Assembly: GCA_029565675.1 (NCBI GenBank)
Contig: JAKQNP010000021.1
Coordinates: 97,630-161,629 of the forward strand
DNA length: 64,000 nucleotides
Reading direction: 5' to 3'
From: a bacterium
GTDB taxonomy: Bacteria; Zhuqueibacterota; Zhuqueibacteria; Residuimicrobiales; Oceaniaggregativiventaceae
Below, piece by piece: positions 20,328 to 38,368 of this stretch (within the stretch, counting starts at the first letter, position 1; each line of letters begins with the position of its first letter). The position numbers and the translations under genes were made by a program. The notes beneath the pieces were generated by a model, which worked only from the letters and a program-made list of their open reading frames with translations, was not told where the DNA came from and did not search any database.

Positions 20328-20756
20328 ATGTTACTCGTTGATCCTTTTCGCGCTTTGGAAGTAGAACGCGAGTTTGATCGCGTGCAGCGGGAAATGAACC
20401 GCTTCCTGCGTGGCACACAGCCCGCGACAGCTTATCGCTATCCTGCAGTCAACATCTGGACTCGCGATGAAGACGCTCTGGTCACTGCTGAATTGCCCGG
20501 CTATTCCATCGATGATATGGAAATTTCGGTGCACAACAAATCGCTGACCATCAGCGGCAAGCGGCGTCCTGTTAAAGAGGAAAATGTCACCGTGCACCGA
20601 AACGAGAGGAAGCCCGATGAATTTCAGCGCACCGTTTTGATGCCCTTCGCTATCGATGCGGAAAAAGTCACGGCGCGTTATGAAAAGGGTATTCTGACGA
20701 TCACATTGCCGCGCCTTGAAGCGGACAAACCCAAAAAGATTGAAATTCGCGCTTAA
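20328..20756 (+). CDS. Hsp20/alpha-crystallin small heat-shock protein (copy 1)
   Basis: ACD domain motifs (AVNIWTRDEDALVTAELPG...; ...GILTITLPR). Confidence 0.85.
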   Translation: MLLVDPFRALEVEREFDRVQREMNRFLRGTQPATAYRYPAVNIWTRDEDALVTAELPGYSIDDMEISVHNKSLTISGKRRPVKEENVTVHRNERKPDEFQRTVLMPFAIDAEKVTARYEKGILTITLPRLEADKPKKIEIRA

Positions 20757-20801
20757 TCGAGAACAACTGAATCGTTGATCAATGATTGTGAGGTGATAAT
20801 C

Positions 20802-21206
20802 ATGGCCAATAAAGAAAAAAGCTTGCAGAAACGCGAGCCTGAAACCGTGAGCACAGTGGAACGAACCCGTTCGCAAAAGGTGTTCGTTCCGCTGGTGGAC
20901 ATCCGCGAAACCGACAACGCGATTGTTTTAACCGCCGACATGCCCGGTGTGGACGAAAAGTCGGTCGATATCACTCTGGAAAAGAATGTCTTGACCATTG
21001 ACGGCCGGGTAGATATGGTGACCCCGGATGGCCATCAGCTGAGCTATATGGAATATGAAACCGGTGATTTCCAGCGCGCTTTTACCCTTTCCGACGAAAT
21101 CAACCGTGAGGGGATCGAGGCGCAGGTCAAAGATGGGGTTTTGCAGGTGACTCTGCCCAAGGCCGAGCCGGCCAAGGCGCGTCGAATCGATATCAAAGTG
21201 GGTTAA
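20802..21206 (+). CDS. Hsp20/alpha-crystallin small heat-shock protein (copy 2)
   Basis: ACD domain (VDIRETDNAIVLTADMPGV...GVLQVTLPK). The start is at MANKEK. Confidence 0.85.
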   Translation: MANKEKSLQKREPETVSTVERTRSQKVFVPLVDIRETDNAIVLTADMPGVDEKSVDITLEKNVLTIDGRVDMVTPDGHQLSYMEYETGDFQRAFTLSDEINREGIEAQVKDGVLQVTLPKAEPAKARRIDIKVG

Positions 21207-21224
21207 ATCATAAGGAGGTGCAAA

Positions 21225-21722
21225 ATGCCGATTCGCGATTTAATTCCGAGTTGGCGGAATCGCAAGCCGGTCGCTGCAGAGCGACAGGAATCAAATCCCT
21301 TTATGCGCCTGCAGGCGGAAATCAATTCGATATTCAATTCGTTCTTTGATGATTTTGCTCTGCAACCATTTCAAGGCGAGACATCAGGTTTTACCCCTTG
21401 TACCGATATTCGCGAAACAGACAAGGAATATATTGTCGAATGCGAACTGCCGGGACTGGATGAAAAGGATGTCGAAATCGATTTAAATTCCGATGTTTTG
21501 ACTCTGCACGGTGAAAAAAAAGCCTTTAATGAGGAAAAACGCGGCGAATACCACTGCATCGAGCGCATGACCGGGCGTTTTGAACGCCATCTGCCATTGC
21601 CGGCGGATGTGGATAGAGAAAAGATTACCGCTGCTTTTAATAAGGGCGTTTTGCAGATTAGGCTGCCCAAGCAGGCGGATGTGCGAAGCGCCAGCAAACG
21701 AATTCTGATTCAGAACAAATAA
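21225..21722 (+). CDS. Hsp20/alpha-crystallin small heat-shock protein (copy 3)
   Basis: ACD domain (TDIRETDKEYIVECELPG...GVLQIRLPK). RBS AAGGAGG. Confidence 0.85.
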   Translation: MPIRDLIPSWRNRKPVAAERQESNPFMRLQAEINSIFNSFFDDFALQPFQGETSGFTPCTDIRETDKEYIVECELPGLDEKDVEIDLNSDVLTLHGEKKAFNEEKRGEYHCIERMTGRFERHLPLPADVDREKITAAFNKGVLQIRLPKQADVRSASKRILIQNK

Positions 21723-22069: not shown

Positions 22070-22387
22070 ATGGAATTGGCTAGGGTTGAGGGAACGATTG
22101 TTTCCACCATGAAATCTGAGCGGCTCAAAGGTCGCAAACTCACGCTGATCAATTTGGTCGGTCCGGATACTCAGCCGATCAATTCCTATCTCGTTGCCAT
22201 CGATCCTCTCGGGGCTGGGGTCGGCGAAATCGTCCTGGCGGTGCGGGGCAGTTCGGCGCGGCAGAGCGACGACCTTGCCACAGTTCCGACCGATACCAGC
22301 ATCGTCGCGATAGTCGATTCCGTCGAGCATTTGGGCAAAATGGTGTATCGCAAGGACCAGCCCAAAAAAACGAGGTCAGCCAGTTGA
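22070..22387 (+). CDS. BMC vertex protein (BMC-P, EutN/CcmL/PduN family), paralog 1
   Basis: MELARVEGTIVST...GRKLTLIN...VAIDPLGAGVGEIVLAVRGSSAR matches the EutN_CcmL fold. Confidence 0.85.
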   Translation: MELARVEGTIVSTMKSERLKGRKLTLINLVGPDTQPINSYLVAIDPLGAGVGEIVLAVRGSSARQSDDLATVPTDTSIVAIVDSVEHLGKMVYRKDQPKKTRSAS

Positions 22388-22650
22388 AGCTCGGACAGGT
22401 GGTCGGCACGGTATGGGCGACGGCCAAGGACCCCAAAATACGCTCGATCCGGCTCTGTCTGATGGTGCCGGTGGATGAAACGTTCCAGCCGATCAGCAAA
22501 CGGCCGCTGGTGGCTGCCGATCCGCTCAACACCCGCACCGGCGATGTGGTTTATTGGGTTGGCGGGGCGGAGGCGACCTTTGCGTTGGCCGACAGACAGA
22601 TTCCCAGCGATGTAACCATCGTCGGTCTGGTAGACCGAATCGATTTGTAG
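22384..22650 (+). CDS. BMC vertex protein (BMC-P), paralog 2
   Basis: TTG start. LGQVVGTVWAT...VAADPLNTRTGDVVYWVGGAEA. It overlaps paralog 1 by 4 bp. Confidence 0.8.
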   Translation: MKLGQVVGTVWATAKDPKIRSIRLCLMVPVDETFQPISKRPLVAADPLNTRTGDVVYWVGGAEATFALADRQIPSDVTIVGLVDRIDL

Positions 22651-22681
22651 AAACAGAACCATCTTCGATCGGCGGCTCTCT

Positions 22682-22966
22682 ATGATTCTGGCACGTGTCA
22701 TCGGCAGCTTGGTATCAACCGATAAACACAGCTGTTATGCAAACAAAAAGTTGATGTTGGTTCGCCCGATCGAACCCGGTGGTTCGTTTACCGGACCTGT
22801 TCAGGTTGCAGTGGACACGGTCAGTGCCGGAAAAGGCGATTGTGTGCTGGTCGCCAGCGAAGGACGGGCGGCGATGGAAATTCTCGGTTTTGATCGCCGC
22901 ATGCCGCTGCGCAGCGTGATTGTCGCTATTGTCGATCGCATCGATCACCCAAACGCCGCCAAATAG
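22682..22966 (+). CDS. BMC vertex protein (BMC-P), paralog 3
   Basis: MILARVIGSLVST...VAVDTVSAGKGDCVLVASEGRAAM. Confidence 0.8.
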   Translation: MILARVIGSLVSTDKHSCYANKKLMLVRPIEPGGSFTGPVQVAVDTVSAGKGDCVLVASEGRAAMEILGFDRRMPLRSVIVAIVDRIDHPNAAK

Positions 22967-22985
22967 GATACCGACAGCTGCTGAT

Positions 22986-23654
22986 ATGGATGCTTCTGAA
23001 CGCGAGAAATTGATCGAGTTAATCGTTGAACAAGTCCTGCGGCAATTGCAGCAAATCGACAGTCTGTCGATTTCTGCAGCAAGGCCAGCGGTCTCCTTGA
23101 ACAAACGATTGATCACCGAACAGGATGTAAAGGCTCTGGTTGCCGCCGGCAATCAAGAGGTGTTTATCGGCCCGCAAAGCCTGATCACACCATTGGCGCA
23201 GGATACCCTGCGCGCGCACCGAATCGTTGTGCAGCGCGGCTTGCCGCCCGGCTCCGCTCCCGCGGCCAAAGACAAGACTGTCGCGCTCTTGGCTGGCGAT
23301 GCAACGAGCGAGTTTCGCCGCGCGCTGGCGCAGATTCTTCAATCCAAGGGTTGCTGCGTGCAGCTGATCGAGGATCGTTTGCCCTCCTTTGCAGAGCGCG
23401 AGAAAAAAGTCCGCGAGCTGGCCCATCGGATTGCAGCCAACGAATTGCACAGTGCCGTGGTGTTGGATGGCAAGGTTTTTTGTCTCAATATCGCCGCCAA
23501 CCGCATCGAACGGGTGCGCGGCGCGATTTGCTGGGATGTATCGTCAACCCGATTGGCGCGCGACGGTTGCGGCGCCAATATTTTGTTCGTCAATGACCGT
23601 CTGATCGACCAAAGCACAATCGCCGAGATGGTACGCGTTTGGATACAGGATTAA
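22986..23654 (+). CDS. BMC-associated fusion protein: N-terminal amphipathic helix plus an EutQ-N-terminus-like segment, fused to an RpiB/LacA/LacB-family sugar-phosphate isomerase-like domain
   Basis: N-term EKLIELIVEQVLRQLQQ is encapsulation-peptide-like. LITEQDVKALVAAGNQEVFIGPQSLITPLAQDTL resembles the EutQ N-terminal region. The C-terminal half (LDGKVFCLNIAANRIERVRGAICWDVSSTRLARDGCGANILFVNDRLI) aligns to the RpiB motif GTGIGMSIAANKVxGIRAALC...HNDANVL. Confidence 0.55.
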   Translation: MDASEREKLIELIVEQVLRQLQQIDSLSISAARPAVSLNKRLITEQDVKALVAAGNQEVFIGPQSLITPLAQDTLRAHRIVVQRGLPPGSAPAAKDKTVALLAGDATSEFRRALAQILQSKGCCVQLIEDRLPSFAEREKKVRELAHRIAANELHSAVVLDGKVFCLNIAANRIERVRGAICWDVSSTRLARDGCGANILFVNDRLIDQSTIAEMVRVWIQD

Positions 23655-23683
23655 AAAGTCGCCGCCAGAGCTGTTGCGGATAG

Positions 23684-25027
23684 ATGGTCGGAACAGGATT
23701 GGAAATGAAGGAACTCGTCGAACAAGTGCGGGAGGCAGGAGTGGTCGGTTCCGGCGGCGCCGGATTCCCCACCCATGTCAAACTCGAAGCACAAGCAGAG
23801 TGGTATCTGGCTAACGGCGCCGAGTGCGAGCCCCTGATGCACAAGGACCGCGAGCTGATGGTCCACTTTGGCCGGGAAGTGGTCGACGGTTTGGAAAAGG
23901 CGGCTGATTGCGTTCAGGCACAAAAGACAGCGATCGGCATTAAATCCAAAAATCGCAACGCCATCGACGCAATTCAGGCGGCGATTCGCCGCGATTCCAT
24001 GCACGTGCACGAATTTGGCGACTTTTATCCGGCAGGCGACGAGTACGAACTTGTTTATGGCATCACCGGCCGACTGATTCCGCCGCAGGGTATCCCCCTG
24101 AATATCGGCGTGGTGGTCAACAACATCGAGACACTGGTCAATATTTCTCGTGCCGTTGCCGGCAAACCGGTCACCGACACGTTCATGACTCTGACCGGTC
24201 TGGTCAAGACCCCGCTCACCACCTGGTTACCGATCGGATTGTCGGTGCGTGAAGCTTTGCAGATCGCTGGTGGTCCGATGATCGATGATTTTGCGGTCAT
24301 GGAGAGCGGGCTGATGATGGGAAAATTGGTGCAGAATCTCGACCAGCCAATCACCAAGACCACCGGCGGGTTGATCGTCTTGCCGGCAGCTCACGATTTG
24401 ATCAAGCGCATCAGCCGGCCGACTGCAGCCCAGCACCGCATCGGCCATTCGGCTTGCGATCAATGCAGCTATTGCACCGAACTCTGCCCGCGCTACTTGC
24501 TCGGCTATGAGGTCAAGCCGCACCTGGTGATGCGCAGCCTTGGATTCACCCAGATGGGCAAGGAATTGTGGAATCAAAACGCTCTGCTCTGCTGTCAATG
24601 CGGCCTTTGTACTCTCTATGCCTGCCCCGAAGGGCTTTACCCGCGCGAGGCGTGTGTGCAGGGCATGAACGATTTGCGCAAGGCCGATAAGGGAAAGTGG
24701 ACTGGCAGCTGCGATATCCAGGTGCATCCGATGAAAAACTCGCGGCGGGTGCCGATTAAAATGTTGATGAACCGTCTGGGTGTCAGCCAATACGAATCGC
24801 ATGCCGAGTACCAGGAGATGCGCGTCGAGCCGGCGCGTGTGGTCATGCCGCTCAAACAGCATGTTGGTCAGGCAGCGGAACCGGTGGTCAAGGTCGGCGA
24901 AAGCGTTCGCCGCGACCAGCTGATCGCCGAGATACCAGATGGAAAACTGGGCGCCCGCGTGCACGCCAGTATCGACGGCAAGATCAGCGCGATCCAAAAT
25001 GAACGAATCACCATCGAACGAGGGTAG
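23684..25027 (+). CDS. PduS-like RnfC-family flavin/Fe-S electron-transfer protein
   Basis: GVVGSGGAGFPTHVKL (RnfC/NuoF-type NADH/FMN site) and two ferredoxin motifs (CDQCSYCTELCP; CCQCGLCTLYACP). The likely start is at MKELVEQV (23705). Confidence 0.8.
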   Translation: MVGTGLEMKELVEQVREAGVVGSGGAGFPTHVKLEAQAEWYLANGAECEPLMHKDRELMVHFGREVVDGLEKAADCVQAQKTAIGIKSKNRNAIDAIQAAIRRDSMHVHEFGDFYPAGDEYELVYGITGRLIPPQGIPLNIGVVVNNIETLVNISRAVAGKPVTDTFMTLTGLVKTPLTTWLPIGLSVREALQIAGGPMIDDFAVMESGLMMGKLVQNLDQPITKTTGGLIVLPAAHDLIKRISRPTAAQHRIGHSACDQCSYCTELCPRYLLGYEVKPHLVMRSLGFTQMGKELWNQNALLCCQCGLCTLYACPEGLYPREACVQGMNDLRKADKGKWTGSCDIQVHPMKNSRRVPIKMLMNRLGVSQYESHAEYQEMRVEPARVVMPLKQHVGQAAEPVVKVGESVRRDQLIAEIPDGKLGARVHASIDGKISAIQNERITIERG

Positions 25028-25032
25028 CGAGC

Positions 25033-25584
25033 ATGCAGATGCGCGCAGTGGGATTGATCGAATTGAACAGCATCGCTGCCGGTATCGACGTGGCGGATGC
25101 CATGCTGAAATCCGCGCAGGTGGAACTTGTGCTGGCGCGAACGATCTGCTCGGGCAAATATCTGGTGATCGTCGGCGGCGAAGTGGCGGCCGTGCGCGCC
25201 AGCGTTGATGCCGGTGCGCAGCGGTGGCCGGGCACGGTGATCGATTTGATGGTGATTCCCAATGTGCATCCTTCGATTTTTCCGGCCATCGCCGGATCCA
25301 ATACGATCGACAAACCGGGTTCTCTCGGGGTGATCGAGTCGTTCAGCGTCGGCTCGCTGATCGAGGCGGCTGACATTGCGGTCAAGACAGCGGCAATCGA
25401 AGTGATCGAAATCCGTCTGGCCATGGCTCTGGGCGGCAAGGCCTTTGTCACCCTGACCGGCGATGTCTCGGCCGTGCGAGCTGCTGTGGATGCCGGCGCC
25501 GCCCATGTGGCGCAAAAGGGTTTGCTGGTCAACAGCGTGGTGATCCCAGCCCCCAGCAAGCAGCTCTATAGAGATTATATTTAA
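25033..25584 (+). CDS. PduT-like tandem-domain BMC shell protein (BMC-T) with a conserved pore cysteine, a putative [4Fe-4S] site
   Basis: Two BMC (PF00936-like) repeats within 183 aa. It is near-collinear with Salmonella PduT (GLIELNSIAAGIDVADAMLKSA..., TICSGKY versus PduT TICPGKF). Confidence 0.85.
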   Translation: MQMRAVGLIELNSIAAGIDVADAMLKSAQVELVLARTICSGKYLVIVGGEVAAVRASVDAGAQRWPGTVIDLMVIPNVHPSIFPAIAGSNTIDKPGSLGVIESFSVGSLIEAADIAVKTAAIEVIEIRLAMALGGKAFVTLTGDVSAVRAAVDAGAAHVAQKGLLVNSVVIPAPSKQLYRDYI

Positions 25585-25660
25585 GCAGCCCGGTCTGCGA
25601 GACAGAAACGCACTCCTTTGTCGCCAGTGCGGCGAAGAGCAGTGAAGCAGGAGTATCTTC

Positions 25661-26329
25661 ATGTCCATTTCCAATGATGAACTCACCCGTAAGGTCGAAA
25701 CCATCGTCCGGCAGGTGATCGATTCGCTCTATCCTGCAACCAATGATTCGGCCATTCCTTTGGGCATTTCGGCGCGGCACCTGCACATCTGCCAGGAGGA
25801 TCTGGAAATTTTGTTCGGCAAAGGCGCGCAGTTGACCAAAATGCGCGATCTGAAACAACCGGGTGAATTCGCCGCCAACGAGACGGTCACCGTGGTCGGA
25901 CCGAACCGCAGGATGTTCGAAAAGGTGCGCATCCTCGGCCCTACCAGACCGCAGACTCAGGTCGAGATGGCCTATTCAGATGGCCGTTTCCTGGGCATCG
26001 AGTTGCCGCATCGAATTTCCGGCAACATCAAAGGCTCCGCGCCCATCACGCTGATCGGTCCGGAAGGTGTTTTGCGCCTTACAGAAGGTGCGATTCGGGC
26101 GATGCGCCACCTGCACTGCAGTCCGCAAGACGCCGCCCGTCTGGGCATCAGGGATGGGGAGGAGGTCAGTGTGCGCACCGAAGGGGAGAGCAGCGTCACC
26201 TTTAATCATGTGGTGGTGCGCATCAAGGACAAATTGAAACTCGAAATGCATGTGGATACCGACGAGGCCAATGCCGCCGGTTTGACTGCGGCCAATGCCT
26301 TTGGTTATCTGGTCAAGGAGCAAAAATAG
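25661..26329 (+). CDS. pduL: PduL-type phosphotransacylase (phosphate propanoyl/acyl-transferase)
   Basis: Two PTAC repeats (GISARHLHICQED...; CSPQDAARLGIRDGEEV). The N-terminal amphipathic helix LTRKVETIVRQVIDSL is a typical PduL encapsulation peptide. Confidence 0.85.
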   Translation: MSISNDELTRKVETIVRQVIDSLYPATNDSAIPLGISARHLHICQEDLEILFGKGAQLTKMRDLKQPGEFAANETVTVVGPNRRMFEKVRILGPTRPQTQVEMAYSDGRFLGIELPHRISGNIKGSAPITLIGPEGVLRLTEGAIRAMRHLHCSPQDAARLGIRDGEEVSVRTEGESSVTFNHVVVRIKDKLKLEMHVDTDEANAAGLTAANAFGYLVKEQK

Positions 26330-27751
26330 ATGGCAGATTTTGATCCAACCCTGGTCGCAGAAATCGTCAGGCGAGTGATAACCGAGCTGAACCACAGCAC
26401 TGGTGCAGCAGCCGGGACGACCGGGGTCACCAACGGCATATTTGCCACTGTGGATCAAGCCTTTGCCGCTGCGGAAAAGGCACAAAAGATCTGGCATGCG
26501 ATGCCGCGTGCCGATAAAGCGAAAGTCATCGCTGCCTTGCGCCAGACCATGCATGATCATGCGGAAGAATTTGCCCGCCGGGCGCAACAAGAAACCGGCA
26601 TGGGACGGGTCGAAGACAAGATCGCCAAACACCACAATGCCGCTGACGCCACACCGGGACTGGAAGACCTCGAGGTGCGTTCCTGGAGCGGTGACAAGGG
26701 TTTGGTGGTGGAAGAATACGCCCCTTATGGCGTCATCGCGGCGATCACCCCGTCGACCCATCCGATTCCGGTGCTCTTGAACAGCTCGATCATCATGATT
26801 GCGCCGGGCAACGCTGTCATTTTCAATGTTCATCCAGCGGCCAAAAATGTTTCCGCCTATGCGATGGAAATCTTTAACCGCACCATTGTCGACAACGGCG
26901 GCCCGGCCAACCTGATCTCCATGCTGCGGGAGCCGACCATGGAAGGGGCCAACGAGCTTTTCCATCATCCGCAGATCCGTCTGATCGCTGCCACCGGCGG
27001 TCCAGGCCTGGTCAAGGCGGCTTTTGCAGCCGGCAAAAAAGTGGTGGCGGCCGGACCGGGCAATCCACCGGTGGTGGTGGATGTGACTGCCGATCTCGAT
27101 CGCGCCGCCCGAGAGATAATCAAAGGCGCCTCTTTCGACAACAACATCCTTTGTATTGCGGAAAAAGAAGTGTTCGTCGTCGATGGCGTTTTCGACCGGT
27201 TTATGCAAGCCATGGCGAATGCCGGAGCGGTACGGCTGAACGCGGCGCAAATCGAAATGCTCACGGCCAAGGCGTTCGGCAAGAACGACAAGGGCCAGGT
27301 CTTTGTCAGCCGCGACTTGATCGGCAAAAACGCCAATGTCCTGGCTGCGATCGCCGGCCTGACGCTTCCCGACCAGGTGCGGATTCTGTATGGCGAAACC
27401 GACAAGAATCATCTCTTTGTGCAGGAAGAGCAAATGATGCCTTTCCTGCCCATCGTCCGCTGTCCATCAGTGGAACAGGCCATTGAATGGTCGGTGGAAG
27501 CCGAGCATGGCTTCGGTCATACGGCCATGATCTATTCCAATCATCTCGAAACCATCACCCGGTTTACCCGTGCGATCGATACCGATATCGTGGTGGTCAA
27601 TGGACCGAGTGGTGCAGGCAATGGCGGTTATTCTGGCGAAGGGTATTTTTCCCATACCATCGCCAGTCCCACGGGAGAGGGTATTTGCACGCCGCGCGAT
27701 TTCGCCCGGGTCCGCCGATTGGCGATCTATGAAAATTTACAGGTCGTCTGA
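26330..27751 (+). CDS. CoA-acylating aldehyde dehydrogenase (PduP/EutE-like) with an N-terminal encapsulation peptide
   Basis: AldDH fold with the catalytic Cys in ILCIAEKE. The N-terminus DPTLVAEIVRRVITEL is followed by a Gly/Ala/Thr-rich linker. Confidence 0.85.
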   Translation: MADFDPTLVAEIVRRVITELNHSTGAAAGTTGVTNGIFATVDQAFAAAEKAQKIWHAMPRADKAKVIAALRQTMHDHAEEFARRAQQETGMGRVEDKIAKHHNAADATPGLEDLEVRSWSGDKGLVVEEYAPYGVIAAITPSTHPIPVLLNSSIIMIAPGNAVIFNVHPAAKNVSAYAMEIFNRTIVDNGGPANLISMLREPTMEGANELFHHPQIRLIAATGGPGLVKAAFAAGKKVVAAGPGNPPVVVDVTADLDRAAREIIKGASFDNNILCIAEKEVFVVDGVFDRFMQAMANAGAVRLNAAQIEMLTAKAFGKNDKGQVFVSRDLIGKNANVLAAIAGLTLPDQVRILYGETDKNHLFVQEEQMMPFLPIVRCPSVEQAIEWSVEAEHGFGHTAMIYSNHLETITRFTRAIDTDIVVVNGPSGAGNGGYSGEGYFSHTIASPTGEGICTPRDFARVRRLAIYENLQVV

Positions 27752-27841
27752 TTGTCCGCTTGATAGGGCATTCAAACGAAAACAAGTTAAACCAAAGGAT
27801 AACCAACGGATCTTATTCCACAAATTGAGGAGAATTCAGTC

Positions 27842-28129
27842 ATGGCACAAGAAGCATTGGGCATGGTCGAAACCCGCGGTTTTATCGCGGCAATTGAAGC
27901 GGCTGATGCGATGGTCAAGGCGGCCAATGTCGAATTGGTCGGCAAGGCCCAGGTCGGGAGTGGTTTGGTTTCTATCATCGTTCGCGGCGATGTGGGTGCT
28001 GTGAAAGCAGCCACCGACGCCGGTGCAGCCGCTGCGGAAAAAGTGGGCGAGCTGGTTTCTGTCCATGTGATTCCCAGACCGCATGCCGATGTCGAAAAAT
28101 TGCTGCCTGCCAAAGGCGTCAAAGCGTAA
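27842..28129 (+). CDS. BMC-H hexamer shell protein (PduA/EutM-like)
   Basis: [31 protein letters not shown]...[17 protein letters not shown] is a canonical single BMC domain. Confidence 0.9.
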
Positions 28130-28141
28130 AGGAGTTGCGCG

Positions 28142-28924
28142 TTGCAAAAATCCCTATTTGCCTTGAAGCGCGATCTGGTCGAGGTAGGGCGACGCGTCTA
28201 CGACCATGGTTTTGTCGCGTCCAATGACGGCAACATCAGCGCCCGGGTCGATAACGACCGCGTTTTGATTACTCCGACCGGAGTGAGCAAAGGTTTTATG
28301 AAGCCGGAAGAGATGGTGCTGGTGGACATGGACGGCAAGGTTTTGTCCAACACAGGCAAACCTTCTTCTGAAGTGTTCATGCATCTGCGGATCTACAAGG
28401 ATCGCCCCGATGTCAACAGCGTCTGTCATGCCCATCCGCCTTATGCGACGGGTTATGCGGTGGCCGGTCTGGCGATGGATAAATGCGTTTTGCCCGAAGT
28501 CATCATCGTTCTCGGCGAAATCCCTCTGGTTGAATACGGTACTCCCGGCACCGAAGAGTTTTATACACCGGTGCTCAAGTATCTCAAAGATCACGACGCG
28601 TTTCTGTTGGCCAACCACGGAGCCCTGACCATCGGCAAAGACATTTACAATGCCTACTTCAAGATGGAGACCCTTGATCACGCGGCCAAAATTCAGTTCA
28701 TCGCCAAACAGCTTGGCCATCTCAACGTGCTCAAGAGCCAGGACGTGGACAAGCTGATGGAGATTCGCAAACGGGCCGGCATTGCCACCTCCTCGCCCTG
28801 TCTCAGCTGCGAGGAAGACGGTTCCTGTGACATCACCACCGCCTGGTCTGGACCGGAGAACCAACCGGACCGCGAACAGCTGGTGCGCCAGGTGACTGAA
28901 GCCGTGCTCCGCCAGTTGAAATAA
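28142..28924 (+). CDS. class II aldolase (L-fuculose/rhamnulose-1-phosphate aldolase family) with a ~45-aa C-terminal extension
   Basis: TTG start. SNDGNISARV...LITPTGV...HAHPPYATGYAV...LANHGALTIG is FucA-like, with the zinc His ligands present. The extension SSPCLSCEEDGSCDITT...REQLVRQVTEAVLRQLK ends in an amphipathic helix. Confidence 0.85.
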   Translation: MQKSLFALKRDLVEVGRRVYDHGFVASNDGNISARVDNDRVLITPTGVSKGFMKPEEMVLVDMDGKVLSNTGKPSSEVFMHLRIYKDRPDVNSVCHAHPPYATGYAVAGLAMDKCVLPEVIIVLGEIPLVEYGTPGTEEFYTPVLKYLKDHDAFLLANHGALTIGKDIYNAYFKMETLDHAAKIQFIAKQLGHLNVLKSQDVDKLMEIRKRAGIATSSPCLSCEEDGSCDITTAWSGPENQPDREQLVRQVTEAVLRQLK

Positions 28925-29070
28925 CACCACAGCCGGACAAACGAAGAGATCCGTTTCGTCCGGCTGTTTTACTGATCCCGCCCAATTGCCGTTTTGCCGC
29001 TCGAAACATCTTGACAGGCCGGCGGCGAACGCCGCATTACTTTGTCTGAAACCTTAAGAGGTTTGCTGCG

Positions 29071-30282
29071 ATGAAACGACCCTTGCACCCGCTCAGGATA
29101 ATCGTCTGCAATATCGGCTCCAGCAGTTTCAAATTCCAATTGCTCGACATGCCGGCGGAACGCCAGCTGGCGCGTGGCTACACCGAGCGCGTTGGCAGCG
29201 ACGATGCCATCATCACCTACTGGGTCGGCGATCGTCAAGTCCTGCAAACCCGAATTGCGGTGCCCAGCCATCGCCAGGCCGTTCAGCACGCCCTGACCTT
29301 TCTGACCGATCCCGAAATCGGTCTGCTCGACAATCTCGATGCCATCGACGGCATCGGATTCAAGACCATTCAGGCAGGCGACAAAAACGGCTCGGTCCTT
29401 CTGGATGACGCGGTTCTTCAGGCAATGGAGGATTACCGCGATCTGGCACCGGCCCACAATCCGCCTTATCTCACGGCTATCTATATGTTTCGCGAAATGC
29501 TGCCCAAAACACCGCTGGTGGGTGTGTTTGAACCGGGTTTTCACCTGAACATGCCCCTGCATGCCCGCGTTTACGGCACGCCCTATGAATGGATCGAAAA
29601 ATATGGGGTCAAGAAATACGGCTATCACGGTGCCTCGCACCGCTATGTCACTGCCGAAACCGTGCGCGTGCTCGGCTTACCGGCCGACAACCATCGCGTC
29701 ATCACCTGCCATCTGGGCGGGTCGTCGTCGCTTTGCGCCTACAAAAATGGCAAATCCATCGATACCTCCATGGGATTCACGCCGCAATCGGGATTGATCC
29801 AGGGCACCCGCATAGGCGACATGGATCCGTTTGTTCTGCCTTATATCATGGTGAAAAAGGGCATCACCCTGGAACAGGCGCTGGCCGAGTGTTCAAAAAG
29901 CGGCGGGCTCAAGGGTTTGTCCGGAATTTCAGCGGACATGCGCGAGATCAAGGAGGCGATCGCCCGGGGCGATGCGCGTGCCAAACTGGCTTGGGATAAG
30001 TTTATCTATGACATCAAACGCTACATTGGCGAGTATCTCGTTCTGCTCGAAGGGGTGGACGCCGTGACCTTTACCGGTGGCATCGGCGAAAACAATGCCG
30101 ATCTTCGCGAGGAGGTGCTGTCGGCACTGCGATTCCTCGGCCTTGAGTTGGACAAGGCGGCAAATGCGGCGCATGCACAATTGATCACCACCTCAAAGTC
30201 CAAAATCCGGGCGCTGGTGCTGAAAACCGATGAAGAGATCGTGGTGGCGCGCGAGACGGTTCGGGTCATGTCCGGCAGTTGA
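29071..30282 (+). CDS. ackA: acetate (acyl) kinase
   Basis: [16 protein letters not shown] (the ATP-binding N-terminus of AckA) and [10 protein letters not shown]. Confidence 0.9.
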
Positions 30283-30310
30283 GCGCCTGAACGATCAAAA
30301 CCAAGGAATA

Positions 30311-32131
30311 ATGATGATGAACAAGGAACAGGAATTCAAAAAAACGGCTTCGGTGCAACGCCTGGCAGGTACACTGCCAAAAATCGGTATCCGGCCGGTC
30401 ATCGACGGCCGTCGTCGCGGGGTGCGCGAATCGCTGGAAGATCAGACGATGGGCATGGCCAGGCGTGCCGCCGCTTTTCTCGAAAAGAATCTGCGCCATC
30501 CCAATGGTCTGCCGATTGAATGCGTGATTGCCGATACCTGCATCGGCGGTGTGGCGGAAGCGGCAGCAGCGGCAGATAAATTTGCCCGCACCGGTGTCGG
30601 CGTGTCGCTGACCGTCACTCCGTGCTGGTGCTACGGCACCGAAGTGATGGACGCCGACCCCCTGATTCCCAAGGCGGTGTGGGGATTCAATGGAACCGAG
30701 CGGCCCGGCGCTGTCTATCTGGCCGCCGCCCTGGCCGGCTATGCGCAAAAAGGGTTGCCCGCGTTCGGCATCTATGGCCGCGATGTGCAGGACGCTGGCG
30801 ACGATTCCATACCCGCCGATGTGGCGGAAAAATTGCTGCGTTTTGCCAAAGCCGCACTCGCCGTGGCGGAAATGCGCGGTAAATCCTATCTCTCCATGGG
30901 ATCGGTGTCCATGGGTATCGCCGGCTCGGTGGTGAACGACGATTTTTTTCACAGCTGGCTCGGCATGCGCAACGAGACCATCGATATGTCGGAATTCGTG
31001 CGCCGCTTTGAGGAAAAGATCTATGATCGCGAGGAATACGAGCGCGCTCTGACCTGGGTGAAAAAATATTGCCCCGAAGGGCCCGACCTCAATCCCGTTG
31101 ACCAGCAGAACTCGCGCCAACGCAAGGATTGGGAATGGGAAACCGTGGTCAAGATGACCCTCATCGCCCGCGATCTCATGGTCGGCAATCCGGTTTTGGC
31201 TGACCTCGGTTACGGCGAAGAAGCTCTGGGCCACAACGCTCTGCTCGCCGGATTCCAGGGCCAACGCCAGTGGACCGATCACTTTCCCAACGGCGATTTC
31301 ATGGAGGCGATTCTCAACTCCTCCTTTGATTGGAACGGCATACGCCAGCCCTATCTGGTGGCTACCGAAAACGACAGCCTGAACGGTACGGTCATGCTCT
31401 TTGGCCATCTGCTCACCGACACGGCGCAGGTCTTTGCCGACGTGCGCACCTATTGGAGCCCACAGGCGATCAAACGCGTCACCGGCAAAGCCGCTGCAGG
31501 CAAGGCGCAGGATGGCATCATCCATCTCATCAACTCGGGTTCAGCGGCGCTGGACGGCTGCGGCCGCCAGCAGCGCAACGGCCAACCGGCGATGAAACCC
31601 TTTTGGGATATCGAACCGCAAGAGGTCAAGGCTTGCCTCGAGGCCACCCGCTGGTGTCCGGCCAGTCTGGGCTATTTCCGCGGTGGCGGTTTTTCTTCCC
31701 AGTTCGTCACCGTCGGCGAGATGCCGGTGACCCTGTCGCGGCTCAATTTGGTCAAAGGCCTGGGCCCTGTGCTGCAGATCGCTGAAGGCTATACGGTCGA
31801 ATTGCCCGACGATATGCATCAGATTCTCAATCAGCGCACCGATCCCACCTGGCCCACCACCTGGTTTGCGCCGATTCTCACCGGAACCGGAGCGTTTTGC
31901 GACGTTTATTCTGTCATGGCCAACTGGGGCGCCAACCACGGTTCCCTCGGCTATGGCCATTTCGGCGACCGCCTGATTACCCTGGCCAGCCTGCTGCGCA
32001 TTCCCGTGTGTATGCACAACGTTGCCGAAGAACGGATCTATCGGCCGCATGCGTGGAGTGCCTTTGGCACCCAGGACCTGCAAGGTGCCGACTATCGCGC
32101 CTGTCAGGCCTATGGGCCGCTTTATGGTTGA
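30311..32131 (+). CDS. fucI: L-fucose isomerase
   Basis: Near-collinear with E. coli FucI ([24 protein letters not shown]..., [45 protein letters not shown]). The start is at the MMMNKEQ cluster (30311-30319). Confidence 0.9.
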
Positions 32132-32162
32132 GTGCAGAACACAACAGAACAATGGGAAAAAA

Positions 32163-33647
32163 ATGGCCGGAGTTAATTATCTCGCCTTTGATTTTGGCGC
32201 CACCAGCGGACGCACGATTCTGGGCACCCTTGGCGATAAACTTGAATTGCGCGAACTAACCCGCTTTCCCAATCGGCAGATCCGCGCCCTGGGAACAACC
32301 TATTGGGATTTTCTCGATCTCTTCGAGCAGATCAAGCAGGGCCTGGTCTGTGCCGCTGGTGAGGGCCGGGCGATCCGCGGCATCGCAGTCGATACCTGGG
32401 GCGTGGATTTCGGCCTGCTGGCAAGCGATGGAAGCCTGCTCGGCAACCCGGTTTCCTATCGCGATCCGCGCACCGATGGCATGATGGAAAAGGTTTTTGC
32501 CCGTATTGCGCGCGACCGGATCTATCGCCTGACCGGCATCCAATTCATGCAACTCAACACTCTCTATCAGCTTTTTGCGCTGGCGCAAAGCCGCTCGCCG
32601 CAACTCGAGGCGGCCGAGACGCTGCTGTTTATGCCAGACCTGTTCAACTATTTTCTCACCGGCGAAAAGCGCACCGAGTACACCATCGCATCCACTTCCC
32701 AGCTGCTGAATGCGCAAAAGCGCAGCTGGGAAAGAGAAATTCTGACCGCGCTCGATGTGCCGCACTCGATCCTCACACCCATCGTGCGGCCGGGAACCGT
32801 GGTCGGGCCGCTGCTGGACGATCTCGCCAAAGAGACCGGTCTGGGCAGAGTGGAGGTCATCGCCGGCGCCGCTCATGATACCGCCGCAGCGGTGGCCGCC
32901 ACGCCGATGCAATCGCCCGGTGCCGCCTATCTCAGCTCCGGCACCTGGTCGCTCCTCGGCGTCGAAGCCGCCGAACCAGTGATCACCGTTGAGTCCCTGC
33001 ATCGCAATTTCACCAACGAAGGCGGAGTCAACGGCACCGTTCGATTTCTCCGCAATGCCATGGGTATGTGGCTGCTGGAAGGGTGCAAGAGCAGCTGGGA
33101 ACGGCAGGGCGGAAAATATTCCTATCCCGAACTGGTGGCTCTGGCCGAAAAAGCCGAACCGTTTCGCAGCATCGTCGACCCGGATGCGGATCTCTTTATC
33201 CATCCGGAGGAGATGCCGGCGGCGATCGATGAGTTCTGCCGCCGTACCGGTCAGCCGGTACCGGACAGCATCGGCGCCTTTGTGCGCTGTGTGTTCGAGA
33301 GCCTTGCCCTGAAATACCGCTTTATCGTCGAGGGAATCGAGGCCATGCGGCCAATACCCATCGATGTCCTGCACATCGTCGGCGGTGGTTCGCAGAATGA
33401 ATTGCTCAACCGCTTTACCGCCGATGCTCTGGGCATTCCGGTGGTTGCCGGACCTATCGAAGCCACAGCCATCGGCAACATCATGGTGCAGGCTGTGGCC
33501 ACCGGCCAGCTCGCCTCGATCGCCGAAGGCCGGGAGCTGGTGGCACGATCGTTCCCTATGAAGACGGTAGAATCCCGCGACACCGCGCAGTGGGAAGAGC
33601 AGTACCAGCGCATCCGTCCGATGTTTGTGCAGGGATTGGAGGGATAA
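32163..33647 (+). CDS. rhaB: rhamnulokinase-like FGGY-family sugar kinase
   Basis: LAFDFGATSGR, IAVDTWGVDFGLL, VSYRDPRTDG, GIQFMQLNTLYQLFAL, YLSSGTWSLLG and HIVGGGSQN follow E. coli RhaB closely. The start is at MAGVNYL. Confidence 0.85.
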   Translation: MAGVNYLAFDFGATSGRTILGTLGDKLELRELTRFPNRQIRALGTTYWDFLDLFEQIKQGLVCAAGEGRAIRGIAVDTWGVDFGLLASDGSLLGNPVSYRDPRTDGMMEKVFARIARDRIYRLTGIQFMQLNTLYQLFALAQSRSPQLEAAETLLFMPDLFNYFLTGEKRTEYTIASTSQLLNAQKRSWEREILTALDVPHSILTPIVRPGTVVGPLLDDLAKETGLGRVEVIAGAAHDTAAAVAATPMQSPGAAYLSSGTWSLLGVEAAEPVITVESLHRNFTNEGGVNGTVRFLRNAMGMWLLEGCKSSWERQGGKYSYPELVALAEKAEPFRSIVDPDADLFIHPEEMPAAIDEFCRRTGQPVPDSIGAFVRCVFESLALKYRFIVEGIEAMRPIPIDVLHIVGGGSQNELLNRFTADALGIPVVAGPIEATAIGNIMVQAVATGQLASIAEGRELVARSFPMKTVESRDTAQWEEQYQRIRPMFVQGLEG

Positions 33648-35964: not shown

Positions 35965-36792
35965 ATGATCGGTCGAACCATTTCCCATTATCAAATCCTC
36001 GCCAAACTCGGCGAAGGCGGCATGGGGATTGTGTATCAAGCCGAGGACCTCAAACTCAAGCGCCCCGTTGCGTTGAAATTTTTACCGCCTGCCTTGACGG
36101 CTGACTCCGAGACCAAAAAACGATTCATACATGAAGCCCGAACCGCCTCCTCGTTGCAGCACAGCAATATCTGTACAATCCATGATATCGACGAAACCGA
36201 CGACGGACAGGTGTTTATCGTCATGGATTGCTATCAAGGCATGACCTTAAAAGAACGACTCGCACAGGGTAGCATGCCGACCGAAGAGGTTGTTCGCATC
36301 GCCGTGCAAATCGCTGCAGGTCTTGCGGAGGCACATGAAAAGGGAATCGTGCATCGCGACATCAAACCGGCCAATATCATGATCACGGACGCAGGTGTTG
36401 TCAAGATTCTGGATTTTGGACTCTCCAAGCTCGCAGGACACCCGGGCATTACGCGAACCGGGACAACCATCGGCACGCCGGCCTATATGGCGCCTGAGCA
36501 AGCACAGGGCAAAGAATCTGACTGCCGAACAGACATCTGGTCTTTCGGCGTCGTTTTGTTCGAAATGCTCAGCGGCCGACAGCCTTTTGCAGCCGAATAC
36601 GATCAGGCCGTTCTCTTTTCAATCGTCAATGAAGAACCCGCAGAGATCGGCAATTTTCGTGCGGATATTCCAGAGCACCTCATCGCTCTCTGCAAACAGT
36701 GCCTGGAAAAGGACAAATCGCCCCCAATCCATGGTGAAAGTGCTGGAATGGCTGAAAACAAGAGAGTCGCGATCCACGAAAAATGTGTTTAG
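35965..36792 (+). CDS. Hanks-type Ser/Thr protein kinase, catalytic domain portion; the gene appears frameshifted at a C5 run (36721-36725)
   Basis: YQILAKLGEGGMGIVYQAED...ALKFL; HRDIKPANIM; DFGLSK; GTPAYMAPE. The frame ends 23 codons after CLEKDKSP. Confidence 0.8.
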   Translation: MIGRTISHYQILAKLGEGGMGIVYQAEDLKLKRPVALKFLPPALTADSETKKRFIHEARTASSLQHSNICTIHDIDETDDGQVFIVMDCYQGMTLKERLAQGSMPTEEVVRIAVQIAAGLAEAHEKGIVHRDIKPANIMITDAGVVKILDFGLSKLAGHPGITRTGTTIGTPAYMAPEQAQGKESDCRTDIWSFGVVLFEMLSGRQPFAAEYDQAVLFSIVNEEPAEIGNFRADIPEHLIALCKQCLEKDKSPPIHGESAGMAENKRVAIHEKCV

Positions 36793-38368
36793 CACGCCGA
36801 ATCGATGGAAAATTTCCAAGATTTCAATGATCTTTTCCCTGGTCTTATTGATTTTGGTATCCGGATGGCATATCGGTACTCGTTTTCTGCGTTCCGGCCG
36901 CTCTGCAAACCAGAGCGTGCGCATTGCAGTCCTGCCTTTTCAAAACCAGACTGGGGACAAAGCGAGCGATTTGCCGATCCTCATTCAGTCGGTAATCGTT
37001 GGCGAATTGCTGGGTGTAGATGAACTAAAAATAATCGACCCTTACAGCCTGAACACGATGATCGAAAGTTCTTTCGCCGGTTTTGAGTTGAAGAGAGAAA
37101 CGCCGTTTTTTCACGCGCTGCGCAATCTTGAAATTGCTTTTATCATCAATGGCGCCATCGTTAAAACCGGAGACCAGTATTTGATTCAATCGAGTATAAC
37201 CAATCTCTTGAATTCGGAAATCATCTTTACAAACAGCATCGCGATAGAAAATGAAGATGTCCTTCCGATTCTTCGAAATCTGGCGCAAAAAATATTATAT
37301 TGTTTTCAGATCAAAATCTTGGCCTATGATCAGGAGAAGGACCTGAGACCCTGGCTGAAAACCGATTCACAGAATCTTTCTGCCATTCGAGCTTTTATTC
37401 AGGCCAGTCGGTATAACTATCAAAGAGAATCCGAACTTGCTGAACGATACCTCCGTCAAGCCATCGAACTCGATTCCGCTTTTATCTCGCCGCGAATTTG
37501 GCTTATCTCCAAGTTGGTCGAGAAGGACGATCTCACGGAAGCTTCCTTACACTATCGGCAGCTTGTTGCCCTTCAGCTGCGAGCCAGTCCTTTCGAACAG
37601 GTAATGATCGATTGGGCAGGCGCCTGTATCGAACAAGATAGTGCTAAGCAGGCGCGCTATTTAGCCCTGGCTCTGGATTATTCGCCCCATAACGATATTT
37701 TGCTTTTTTCGCTGGCCCGACTGCGCTACATCATGGGCGATAATCAGGAAAGCATTGAGGCCTTGAACGATCTGATTAAATTGAAAACCAAATTTTCTCC
37801 GACCTATTACCTGTTGGGAGCGAATTACTTTCAGCTTGAAAGGTATAAAGATGCCCGGGAAACGCTGGAAGGAGCGCTGGTGTACAAACCTGTTGAACCC
37901 TTGATCTATAGTTTGTTGGCCAGATTGAGCATCTTCGACGGCGATACTGCCAAAGCCCTGTACTATGAAAAACTGTATTTGAACCGTATCAGCGAACAAA
38001 GAATGCCCCTGAGCAAGGCCTATGAAAATCTCGCCCTGCAAAACCATGCCCATGATCGGTATGATGCGGCGATTGGCTATTTCCGTTTGGCCATTGCAGC
38101 AGATGAGAATCGTGCAGAATATCACAAAGGATTGGCGGACGTTTTGTTCGAGAAGGGATTGGCGGATTCAGCGGCAGGCGAATACAGAACGGCTCTGAGG
38201 CTCGATCCGAACGACGCCGATTCGCATTATAGACTTGGCCGGATTTTTCAACAAAAAAATACAGCCGATCTGGCCATCAGCCATTATCGTGCTTATCTGC
38301 AACTGGATTCATCGAGCACAAAGTCGACGATGGTCAGAAAGTTTTTAAAGCAATTGCAGCCCGACTAG
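36719..38368 (+). CDS. C-terminal portion of the same Ser/Thr kinase gene (juxtamembrane segment, TM helix, IAVLPF-motif TolB-like region and TPR repeats), in the +1 frame relative to the kinase domain
   Basis: ...VKVLEWLKTRE...ISMIFSLVLLILVSGW (TM), IAVLPFQNQTGD, then multiple TPR-like repeats (AIGYFRLAIAADENRAEYHKGLADVLFEKG...). Confidence 0.7.
   Translation, partial: RPQSMVKVLEWLKTRESRSTKNVFSTPNRWKISKISMIFSLVLLILVSGWHIGTRFLRSGRSANQSVRIAVLPFQNQTGDKASDLPILIQSVIVGELLGVDELKIIDPYSLNTMIESSFAGFELKRETPFFHALRNLEIAFIINGAIVKTGDQYLIQSSITNLLNSEIIFTNSIAIENEDVLPILRNLAQKILYCFQIKILAYDQEKDLRPWLKTDSQNLSAIRAFIQASRYNYQRESELAERYLRQAIELDSAFISPRIWLISKLVEKDDLTEASLHYRQLVALQLRASPFEQVMIDWAGACIEQDSAKQARYLALALDYSPHNDILLFSLARLRYIMGDNQESIEALNDLIKLKTKFSPTYYLLGANYFQLERYKDARETLEGALVYKPVEPLIYSLLARLSIFDGDTAKALYYEKLYLNRISEQRMPLSKAYENLALQNHAHDRYDAAIGYFRLAIAADENRAEYHKGLADVLFEKGLADSAAGEYRTALRLDPNDADSHYRLGRIFQQKNTADLAISHYRAYLQLDSSSTKSTMVRKFLKQLQPD

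Follow-up and report, generated by a model that had tools for sequence, protein, structure and literature searches.

In a 64-kb stretch of bacterial DNA (hereafter the window), two adjacent open reading frames (ORFs) of the + strand, 23684-25027 and 25033-25584, encode a homolog of the flavoprotein PduS and a PduT-type protein of the shell of a bacterial microcompartment (BMC). PduS homologs were renamed "metabolosome NADH dehydrogenase" (MNdh) by Sutter et al. 2024, PNAS (PMC11626177); we use this name here, and BMC-T^SE for the shell protein. The pair lies in the operon of a fucose/rhamnose-type metabolosome without a nearby alcohol dehydrogenase, and it probably constitutes the NADH-oxidising electron-export module of this metabolosome. 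An earlier, sequence-only reading of the same DNA had placed such a pair at these positions, as Pfam, NCBIfam and PDB matches bear out, and had proposed that the PduS-like protein reoxidises the lumenal NADH while the electrons leave through the iron-sulphur (Fe-S) pore of the PduT-like protein. This proposal is the same as the published MNdh/BMC-T^SE model (PMC11626177) and is supported as such; for the locus of the window we infer it.

The flavoprotein MNdh

The predicted product of 23684-25027 is a genuine PduS/RnfC-type flavoprotein. Essentially all window ORFs of at least 100 amino acids (aa) were scanned with Pfam profiles; MNdh matched Complex1_51K (E=1.9e-42, residues 15-155), Fer4_17 (E=2.6e-15; 4Fe-4S dicluster region at residues 257-318) and RnfC_N (E=3e-15, residues 382-442, i.e. 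C-terminal). The SLBB domain, at residues 169-201, was detected with E=1.2e-5 but with a score of 25.4 bits, slightly below the gathering cut-off of 27 bits. The order of the domains is thus Complex1_51K, SLBB, 4Fe-4S dicluster and RnfC_N, the latter in the C-terminal permutation that separates MNdh from RnfC and NuoF (PMC11626177). MNdh also scored 248 bits with the NCBIfam model rnfC, over the cut-off, and matched RnfC of known structure (PDB 7ZC6) with E=3e-52. This match is in two pieces, RnfC 30-82 aligning with MNdh 383-436 and RnfC 117-417 with MNdh 5-317, and therefore shows the circular permutation directly.

The reference PduS and PduT were taken from the annotated pdu operon of Salmonella. 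MNdh aligns end to end with Salmonella PduS, at 43% identity. The FMN/NADH motifs GGAGFP, AECEP and YPAGDE are invariant between MNdh, Salmonella PduS and the orthologs, and they align with RnfC 7ZC6; the predicted RnfC-type NADH/FMN site recognised by the sequence-only reading is present. That reading had also described two CxxCxxCxxxCP motifs. The description is exact for the first (Cys258/261/264/268), while the second (Cys303/306/309/314) is CxxCxxCxxxxCP, one residue longer, with a spacing identical to that of Salmonella PduS (CSECNVCESVACP). All eight Fe-S cysteines are invariant with respect to Salmonella PduS and kept in 20 of the 21 MNdh orthologs, the sole exception being a frameshifted copy.

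The MNdh ORF is 447 aa long, and a start at Met8 (23705) would give 440 aa. The latter is probably the true start because most orthologs start there and three out of four public gene calls give 440 aa (447 aa in the fourth). MNdh is devoid of an encapsulation peptide, as are the kinases and the isomerase of the cluster.

The shell protein BMC-T^SE

The BMC-T gene starts after a gap of 5 bases downstream of MNdh. Its product (183 aa) is composed of two PF00936 domains (E=3.3e-47) and matches the PduT-type BMC-T structures 3NWG, 3PAC and 3N79 (E=8e-52 to 9e-45) in alignments without gaps, at 41-45% identity, which corresponds to a single-layer PduT-type tandem protein. Its identity with Salmonella PduT is 41%, and the shell-edge lysines are conserved. 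The motif TICSGKY had been assigned to the PduT pore position: its Cys39 does align with Cys38, the cluster ligand in the TICPGKF motif of Salmonella PduT. In the alignments with PduS and PduT, which had been put forward as a check of the pair, all cluster ligands are thus conserved.

The pore Cys is invariant in the 18 syntenic orthologs. We also made a census of the pore motif in the 120 closest database homologs of BMC-T (P0001-P0120), and the Cys was found in 119 of them; in the remaining one an N-terminal extension shifts the motif outside the scanned range. The product of 25033-25584 is assigned on these grounds as a genuine PduT-like Fe-S shell protein, the cluster itself being predicted.

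Search for an alcohol dehydrogenase

According to the sequence-only reading, an aldehyde dehydrogenase (AldDH) reduces NAD+ inside the shell and no alcohol dehydrogenase is encoded to reoxidise the NADH. The acylating AldDH is indeed present (26330-27751), co-occurring in the window with the MNdh/BMC-T pair, and it is the predicted source of the lumenal NADH. As for alcohol dehydrogenases, the searches agree with that statement for the 64 kb of the window and for its syntenic relatives. None of the alcohol, lactate, malate and short-chain dehydrogenase families was detected in the scanned window ORFs. A contig search retrieved 20 related loci, whose MNdh are 58-67% identical to that of the window and around which about 10 kb of flanks were viewed; tblastn with E. 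coli FucO gave no match in the window nor within these flanks. Among the 10 operon-adjacent ORFs of the related loci, each checked with Pfam, there is no dehydrogenase. Neither is any dehydrogenase family recurrent among 94 unassigned neighbour ORFs, in a Pfam survey based on the 25 most recurrent families listed, where a singleton could be missed. L028, the locus of a complete Acidobacteriota genome (CP070717.1), likewise shows no alcohol dehydrogenase in or within about 10 kb around its copy of the operon. The window encodes only one other NAD(P) oxidoreductase, of the GFO/IDH/MocA family, whose truncated gene lies about 20 kb off at the window edge. Finally, a six-frame search of the window with a regular expression for amphipathic helices returned, beyond the tagged enzymes of Table 1, only membrane segments and antisense matches, i.e. 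no extra encapsulation-peptide-like sequence in plausible window ORFs.

These negative results bear on the principal rival explanation, in which a dehydrogenase (lactaldehyde reductase) encoded elsewhere, perhaps with an encapsulation tag, would be the main NAD+ recycler and the pair auxiliary or condition-dependent, as in those PDU compartments where the two systems occur together. They make this explanation unlikely in our opinion, in spite of two arguments in its favour: components of BMCs are often encoded in satellite loci, and in Salmonella the knock-outs of pduS, pduT and pduQ each have only a mild phenotype (PMC11626177).

Several points weigh against the electron-export role of the pair, and the first two also speak for a dehydrogenase encoded elsewhere. 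The portion of the genome seen is 64 kb, and an alcohol dehydrogenase, even an encapsulation-tagged one, is possibly encoded in another part of it. MNdh and alcohol dehydrogenase coexist in 1,725 loci, which are the majority of the MNdh loci (PMC11626177). No ferredoxin or flavodoxin that could be the acceptor is encoded in the window, the only protein found in looking for candidate acceptors being a DCC1-like thiol oxidoreductase encoded upstream. The activity, the cofactor content and the docking of the window pair rest on homology and on cited work, and the experiments concern a homolog from another BMC type (GRM1 of Clostridium botulinum) with O2 as artificial acceptor. BMC-T scores 122 bits with the NCBIfam model eut_PduT, below the equivalog cut-off of 250. 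The pore loop of BMC-T is C-S-G-K (codons of ICSGKY at 25147-25158) and differs from C-P-(G/S)-K, given as universal where a BMC-T^SE adjoins MNdh (PMC11626177); the Pro is not a ligand.

This C-S-G-K loop is found in 18 out of 18 syntenic orthologs. Among the 120 closest homologs the motif is CSGK in 107, CAGK in 12 and CPGK in none, and this clade contradicts the statement of the 2024 paper that CP(G/S)K is universal (PMC11626177). Because Cys, Gly and Lys are retained, we treat C-S-G-K as a putative clade-specific variant that gives no ground to exclude the window protein from BMC-T^SE. The clade-wide replacement of the pore Pro could alter the geometry, the ligation or the potential of the cluster, an idea we regard as doubtful; a cluster modified in this way might, for example, suit another external acceptor in anaerobes.

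Other roles for the pair

The flavoprotein could be a cobalamin reductase serving a B12-dependent enzyme, which is the original assignment of PduS; MNdh is 43% identical to the Salmonella protein, itself annotated as cobalamin reductase. The sequence-only reading had reported that no B12 enzyme is encoded in the locus, and we came to the same result. B12-dependent and glycyl-radical enzymes are absent from the scanned window ORFs, and neither the diol dehydratase PduCDE, the ethanolamine ammonia-lyase EutBC, an adenosyltransferase nor a B12-binding domain was found in the window or in the syntenic loci. Because no B12 enzyme is encoded in the window or the syntenic loci, the role of MNdh as B12 reductase was rejected, and we give it hardly any credit. 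The predicted signature enzyme of the locus, a metal-dependent class II aldolase, also argues against it, and in the literature the reduction of B12 is now treated as at most indirect (PMC11626177).

Another redox role of the pair seems very improbable. Shell redox sensing or gating, Fe-S supply or repair and O2 scavenging have been considered, as well as a direct reduction of the aldehyde in place of an alcohol dehydrogenase. Such ideas were proposed for PduT and PduS in earlier papers (the alcohol dehydrogenase surrogate by Axen et al. 2014), and the MNdh/BMC-T complex does reduce O2 in vitro (PMC11626177). Against them, the window encodes no further encapsulated enzyme of the Fe-S or O2-sensitive radical kind, and the fact that MNdh strictly co-occurs with AldDH, together with the straight FMN-cluster-cluster-pore geometry, favours an export driven by NADH (PMC11626177).

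The electron-export role that we favour would fit into the following pathway. The analysis itself shows the gene identities, the conserved ligands, the adjacency and synteny of the genes, the encapsulation tags and the lack of an alcohol dehydrogenase in the window; that the cofactors are loaded, that the two proteins dock, which way the electrons flow, what accepts them and that the aldehyde is lactaldehyde we infer by analogy. L-fucose isomerase and the FGGY kinase would produce L-fuculose-1-phosphate in the cytoplasm; the match of the isomerase is at equivalog level, which supports this substrate assignment. In the shell, the tagged class II aldolase would cleave L-fuculose-1-phosphate into dihydroxyacetone phosphate and L-lactaldehyde, and the tagged acylating AldDH would convert lactaldehyde to lactyl-CoA with reduction of NAD+. 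The tagged PduL would then recycle CoA and form lactyl-phosphate, from which acetate kinase would yield lactate and ATP. At the lumenal face of the BMC-T trimer, where it would be docked, MNdh would reoxidise the trapped NADH at its FMN. From FMN the electrons would travel via both [4Fe-4S] clusters of MNdh to the [4Fe-4S] cluster held by three Cys39 at the trimer pore, and from there to a cytoplasmic acceptor. No alcohol by-product would be required.

Gene content of the operon

The pair is part of a compact co-directional cluster, 22070-33647 (Table 1).

Table 1. Genes of the BMC operon in the window
Feature	Coordinates	Strand	Matches and remarks
BMC-P (EutN/CcmL) vertex protein 1, 105 aa	22070..22387	+	PF03319 E=9.6e-27
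BMC-P vertex protein 2, 88 aa	22384..22650	+	PF03319 E=1.4e-21
BMC-P vertex protein 3, 94 aa	22682..22966	+	PF03319 E=2.6e-22
RpiB-like protein, 222 aa	22986..23654	+	PF02502 48.5 bits, partial; N-terminal encapsulation peptide EKLIELIVEQVLRQL
MNdh (PduS homolog)	23684..25027	+	NADH/FMN domain, SLBB, two [4Fe-4S] motifs, C-terminal RnfC_N
BMC-T^SE (PduT-type tandem BMC)	25033..25584	+	pore Cys39 in ICSGKY; edge lysines K26, K118
PduL-type phosphotransacylase	25661..26329	+	PF06130 E=4.4e-71; NF011652 243 bits, over cut-off; N-terminal encapsulation peptide ELTRKVETIVRQVIDSL
CoA-acylating AldDH (EutE/PduP family)	26330..27751	+	NF011927 584 bits vs 403-bit cut-off; N-terminal encapsulation peptide TLVAEIVRRVITEL
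BMC-H hexamer shell protein, 95 aa	27842..28129	+	PF00936 E=3.5e-29
Class II (FucA/RhaD-like) aldolase	28142..28924	+	PF00596 E=4.2e-54; C-terminal encapsulation peptide EQLVRQVTEAVLRQLK
Acetate/propionate-family kinase	29071..30282	+	PF00871 E=5e-114; TIGR00016 377 bits, over cut-off
L-fucose isomerase	30311..32131	+	NF008220 1080 bits vs 775-bit cut-off
FGGY kinase, nearest rhamnulokinase	32163..33647	+	TIGR02627 509 bits vs 528-bit cut-off

Judging from the family assignments, the class II aldolase is the signature enzyme of the locus and the FGGY kinase a presumed fuculo/rhamnulokinase. The aldolase shares 29% identity with E. coli FucA, and its HxH pair and Glu align with those of FucA; we take these residues to be the Zn-His/Glu site. 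The encapsulation peptides of the RpiB-like protein, AldDH, PduL and the aldolase are similar and amphipathic. Those of the RpiB-like protein and AldDH were caught by the regular expression, those of PduL and the aldolase were read from the protein termini.

The start of the RpiB-like protein at 22986 is consistent with public gene calls. The catalytic Cys, Thr, His and Asn of RpiB are replaced by Asp, Lys, Gly and Cys, and the identity among orthologs (L001, L002, L004, L005 and L012) is only 24-32%, compared with 55-85% for the neighbouring genes. It is moreover truncated or missing in several related loci. It is probably a pseudoenzyme or scaffold. The loss of the catalytic residues, the low identity between orthologs and the truncation or loss in several loci suggest a scaffold or a decaying enzyme; that it is a dedicated scaffold and not an enzyme is a separate speculation to which we give little weight. 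Behind the encapsulation peptide, in the N-terminal half of the protein, a segment at approximately 23052-23300 (KRLITEQDV...SLITPLAQDTLRAHRI) gave a match (E=3.9e-8) to the C-terminal part of TIGR02536 "eut_hyp". In two related loci (L011:5294-5662 and L020:1333-1707) this TIGR02536-like region stands by itself in a protein of about 120 aa that lacks the RpiB domain; it may be a BMC-associated module.

Related loci and flanking genes

The source labels of the 20 related loci are candidate division KSB1, Calditrichota, "uncultured Cytophagia" and others (metagenome-assembled genomes). In all 20 the BMC-T gene directly follows MNdh, and the order of the whole operon is kept in most; it is fully conserved across genomes of KSB1, Calditrichota and Acidobacteriota. 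In the complete Acidobacteriota genome (CP070717.1) the operon stands behind a DeoR regulator. An identical BMC-T protein with the same neighbourhood is present in many public assemblies, including GCA_035342275.1, GCA_046128295.1, JGI 3300009782 and ENA ERZ27257428.

Three related loci (L004, L005 and L012) have RhaA, located upstream, in place of FucI, and in L012 the lactate-utilisation complex LutABC comes directly after the aldolase. The presence of RhaA and LutABC fits a 6-deoxyhexose as input and lactate as output. This rhamnose-type sub-variant has no AldDH between PduL and BMC-H, and the roughly 10 kb in view contain none either; the three loci nevertheless keep MNdh and BMC-T. On a 3.6-Mb contig (L027, ENA ERZ21869602) MNdh and BMC-T form an isolated two-gene satellite. 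Its neighbours encode glycoside hydrolases (GH123, rhamnosidase) and a PAS sensor of large size, and the surrounding 10 kb contain no further BMC gene.

Three tandem genes for Hsp20 small heat-shock proteins (20328-21722, + strand) are located directly upstream of the BMC operon, about 350 bp away from it. In front of them stand the genes of the DCC1-like thiol oxidoreductase and of a secreted hypothetical protein, an arrangement kept in the related locus L001:6548-8136. At 35965-38368 (+ strand) a Ser/Thr kinase ORF (35965-36792) and a TPR ORF (36395-38368) overlap in different frames, and at the equivalent position the near-identical contig L024 has a single kinase-TPR gene of 802 aa. The difference suggests that the window carries a frameshift here, from either a pseudogene or an assembly error.

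Comparison with known systems

Of more than 7,000 BMC loci, 2,172 contain MNdh, among them many B12-independent types such as PVM, SPU and MIC, and the MNdh gene adjoins that of a pore-Cys BMC-T in 97% of cases; 361 loci have the MNdh/BMC-T^SE pair but no alcohol dehydrogenase (PMC11626177). The locus of the window falls in this last class. The pair of C. botulinum was characterised biochemically: it oxidises NADH with a kcat of about 20 per second, electron paramagnetic resonance gave evidence for the reduction of the BMC-T cluster, voltammetry gave potentials of -0.35 to -0.15 V, and the MNdh/BMC-T complex was analysed by X-ray footprinting (PMC11626177). The same model was afterwards used for sugar-phosphate BMCs (PMC11585597) and archaeal microcompartments (PMC12747264). 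As to the locus class, Axen et al. 2014 described "SPU-like" loci of Latescibacteria and found it puzzling that B12-independent loci contain PduS. In Sutter et al. 2021 the MIC4 type comprises AldDh, phosphotransacylase (PTAC), a PF00596 aldolase, a PF00871 kinase and a PduT-type BMC-T, with members in KSB1, Calditrichaeota and Ignavibacteria. The pairing and its role in NAD+ recycling were published in 2024 and the locus class was catalogued in 2014 and 2021. Because both the mechanism and the class are in the literature, the window locus is an unexceptional example of a system that is already known.

The underlying idea is that a protein shell works as a membrane for redox separation and sends electrons out by an Fe-S "wire", which avoids any loss of substrate to alcohol. 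It is relevant to the biology and the engineering of BMCs, and it was published with biochemical support in 2024. The window contributes a further clean natural example, in which a fucose-type metabolosome has the pair within its main operon and no alcohol dehydrogenase nearby, together with a small sequence variation in the pore loop. It opens no new question and is not a new kind of system.

The window pair resembles that of C. botulinum GRM1 by the permuted four-domain flavoprotein, the eight Fe-S cysteines and the FMN/NADH motifs, and also by the adjoining pore-Cys PduT-type BMC-T, the acylating AldDH and the lack of a B12 enzyme. It differs by the BMC type (aldolase instead of glycyl radical), the phylum and the C-S-G-K loop. 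With Salmonella it shares full-length identities of 43% (PduS) and 41% (PduT), the order pduS-pduT, the equivalence of Cys38 and Cys39 and the CxxCxxCxxxxCP spacing, whereas the Salmonella PDU system is B12-dependent, encodes the alcohol dehydrogenase PduQ and has the pore motif CPGK. RnfC (7ZC6) has the same NADH/FMN domain and two [4Fe-4S] clusters (E=3e-52). Its RnfC_N is N-terminal, that of MNdh C-terminal; no other rnf genes accompany MNdh, and its partner is a shell protein and not a membrane complex.

Among the BMC types, PDU and EUT do not fit, neither PduCDE nor EutBC being encoded in the window or the related loci. The PVM type (Planctomycetes/Verrucomicrobia; fucose/rhamnose) differs as well. 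Its main loci carry an Ldh/Mdh-family dehydrogenase, the proposed regenerator of NAD+, which is absent from the window; moreover, its MNdh/BMC-T^SE pairs are mostly in satellite loci (18 of 20 occurrences), whereas the window pair is inside the main operon. The sequence-only reading had spoken of a sugar-phosphate BMC. This needs correcting in that the BMC is of the fuculose/rhamnulose-1-phosphate aldolase type and not a DERA-type SPU. No DeoC/DERA aldolase (PF01791), the SPU signature sensu Sutter 2021, was found in the scanned window ORFs, where only a degenerate PF02502 is present; because DERA is absent, the locus falls outside the strictly defined SPU BMCs. It has the N-terminally tagged AldDh, the PduL PTAC, the PF00596 aldolase, the PF00871 kinase and the BMC-P triplet of MIC4, and is thus a fucose/rhamnose-type metabolosome of the MIC4 class, earlier named "SPU-like". 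We see no difference of substance from these loci, to which the window adds fucI and the FGGY kinase gene directly downstream.

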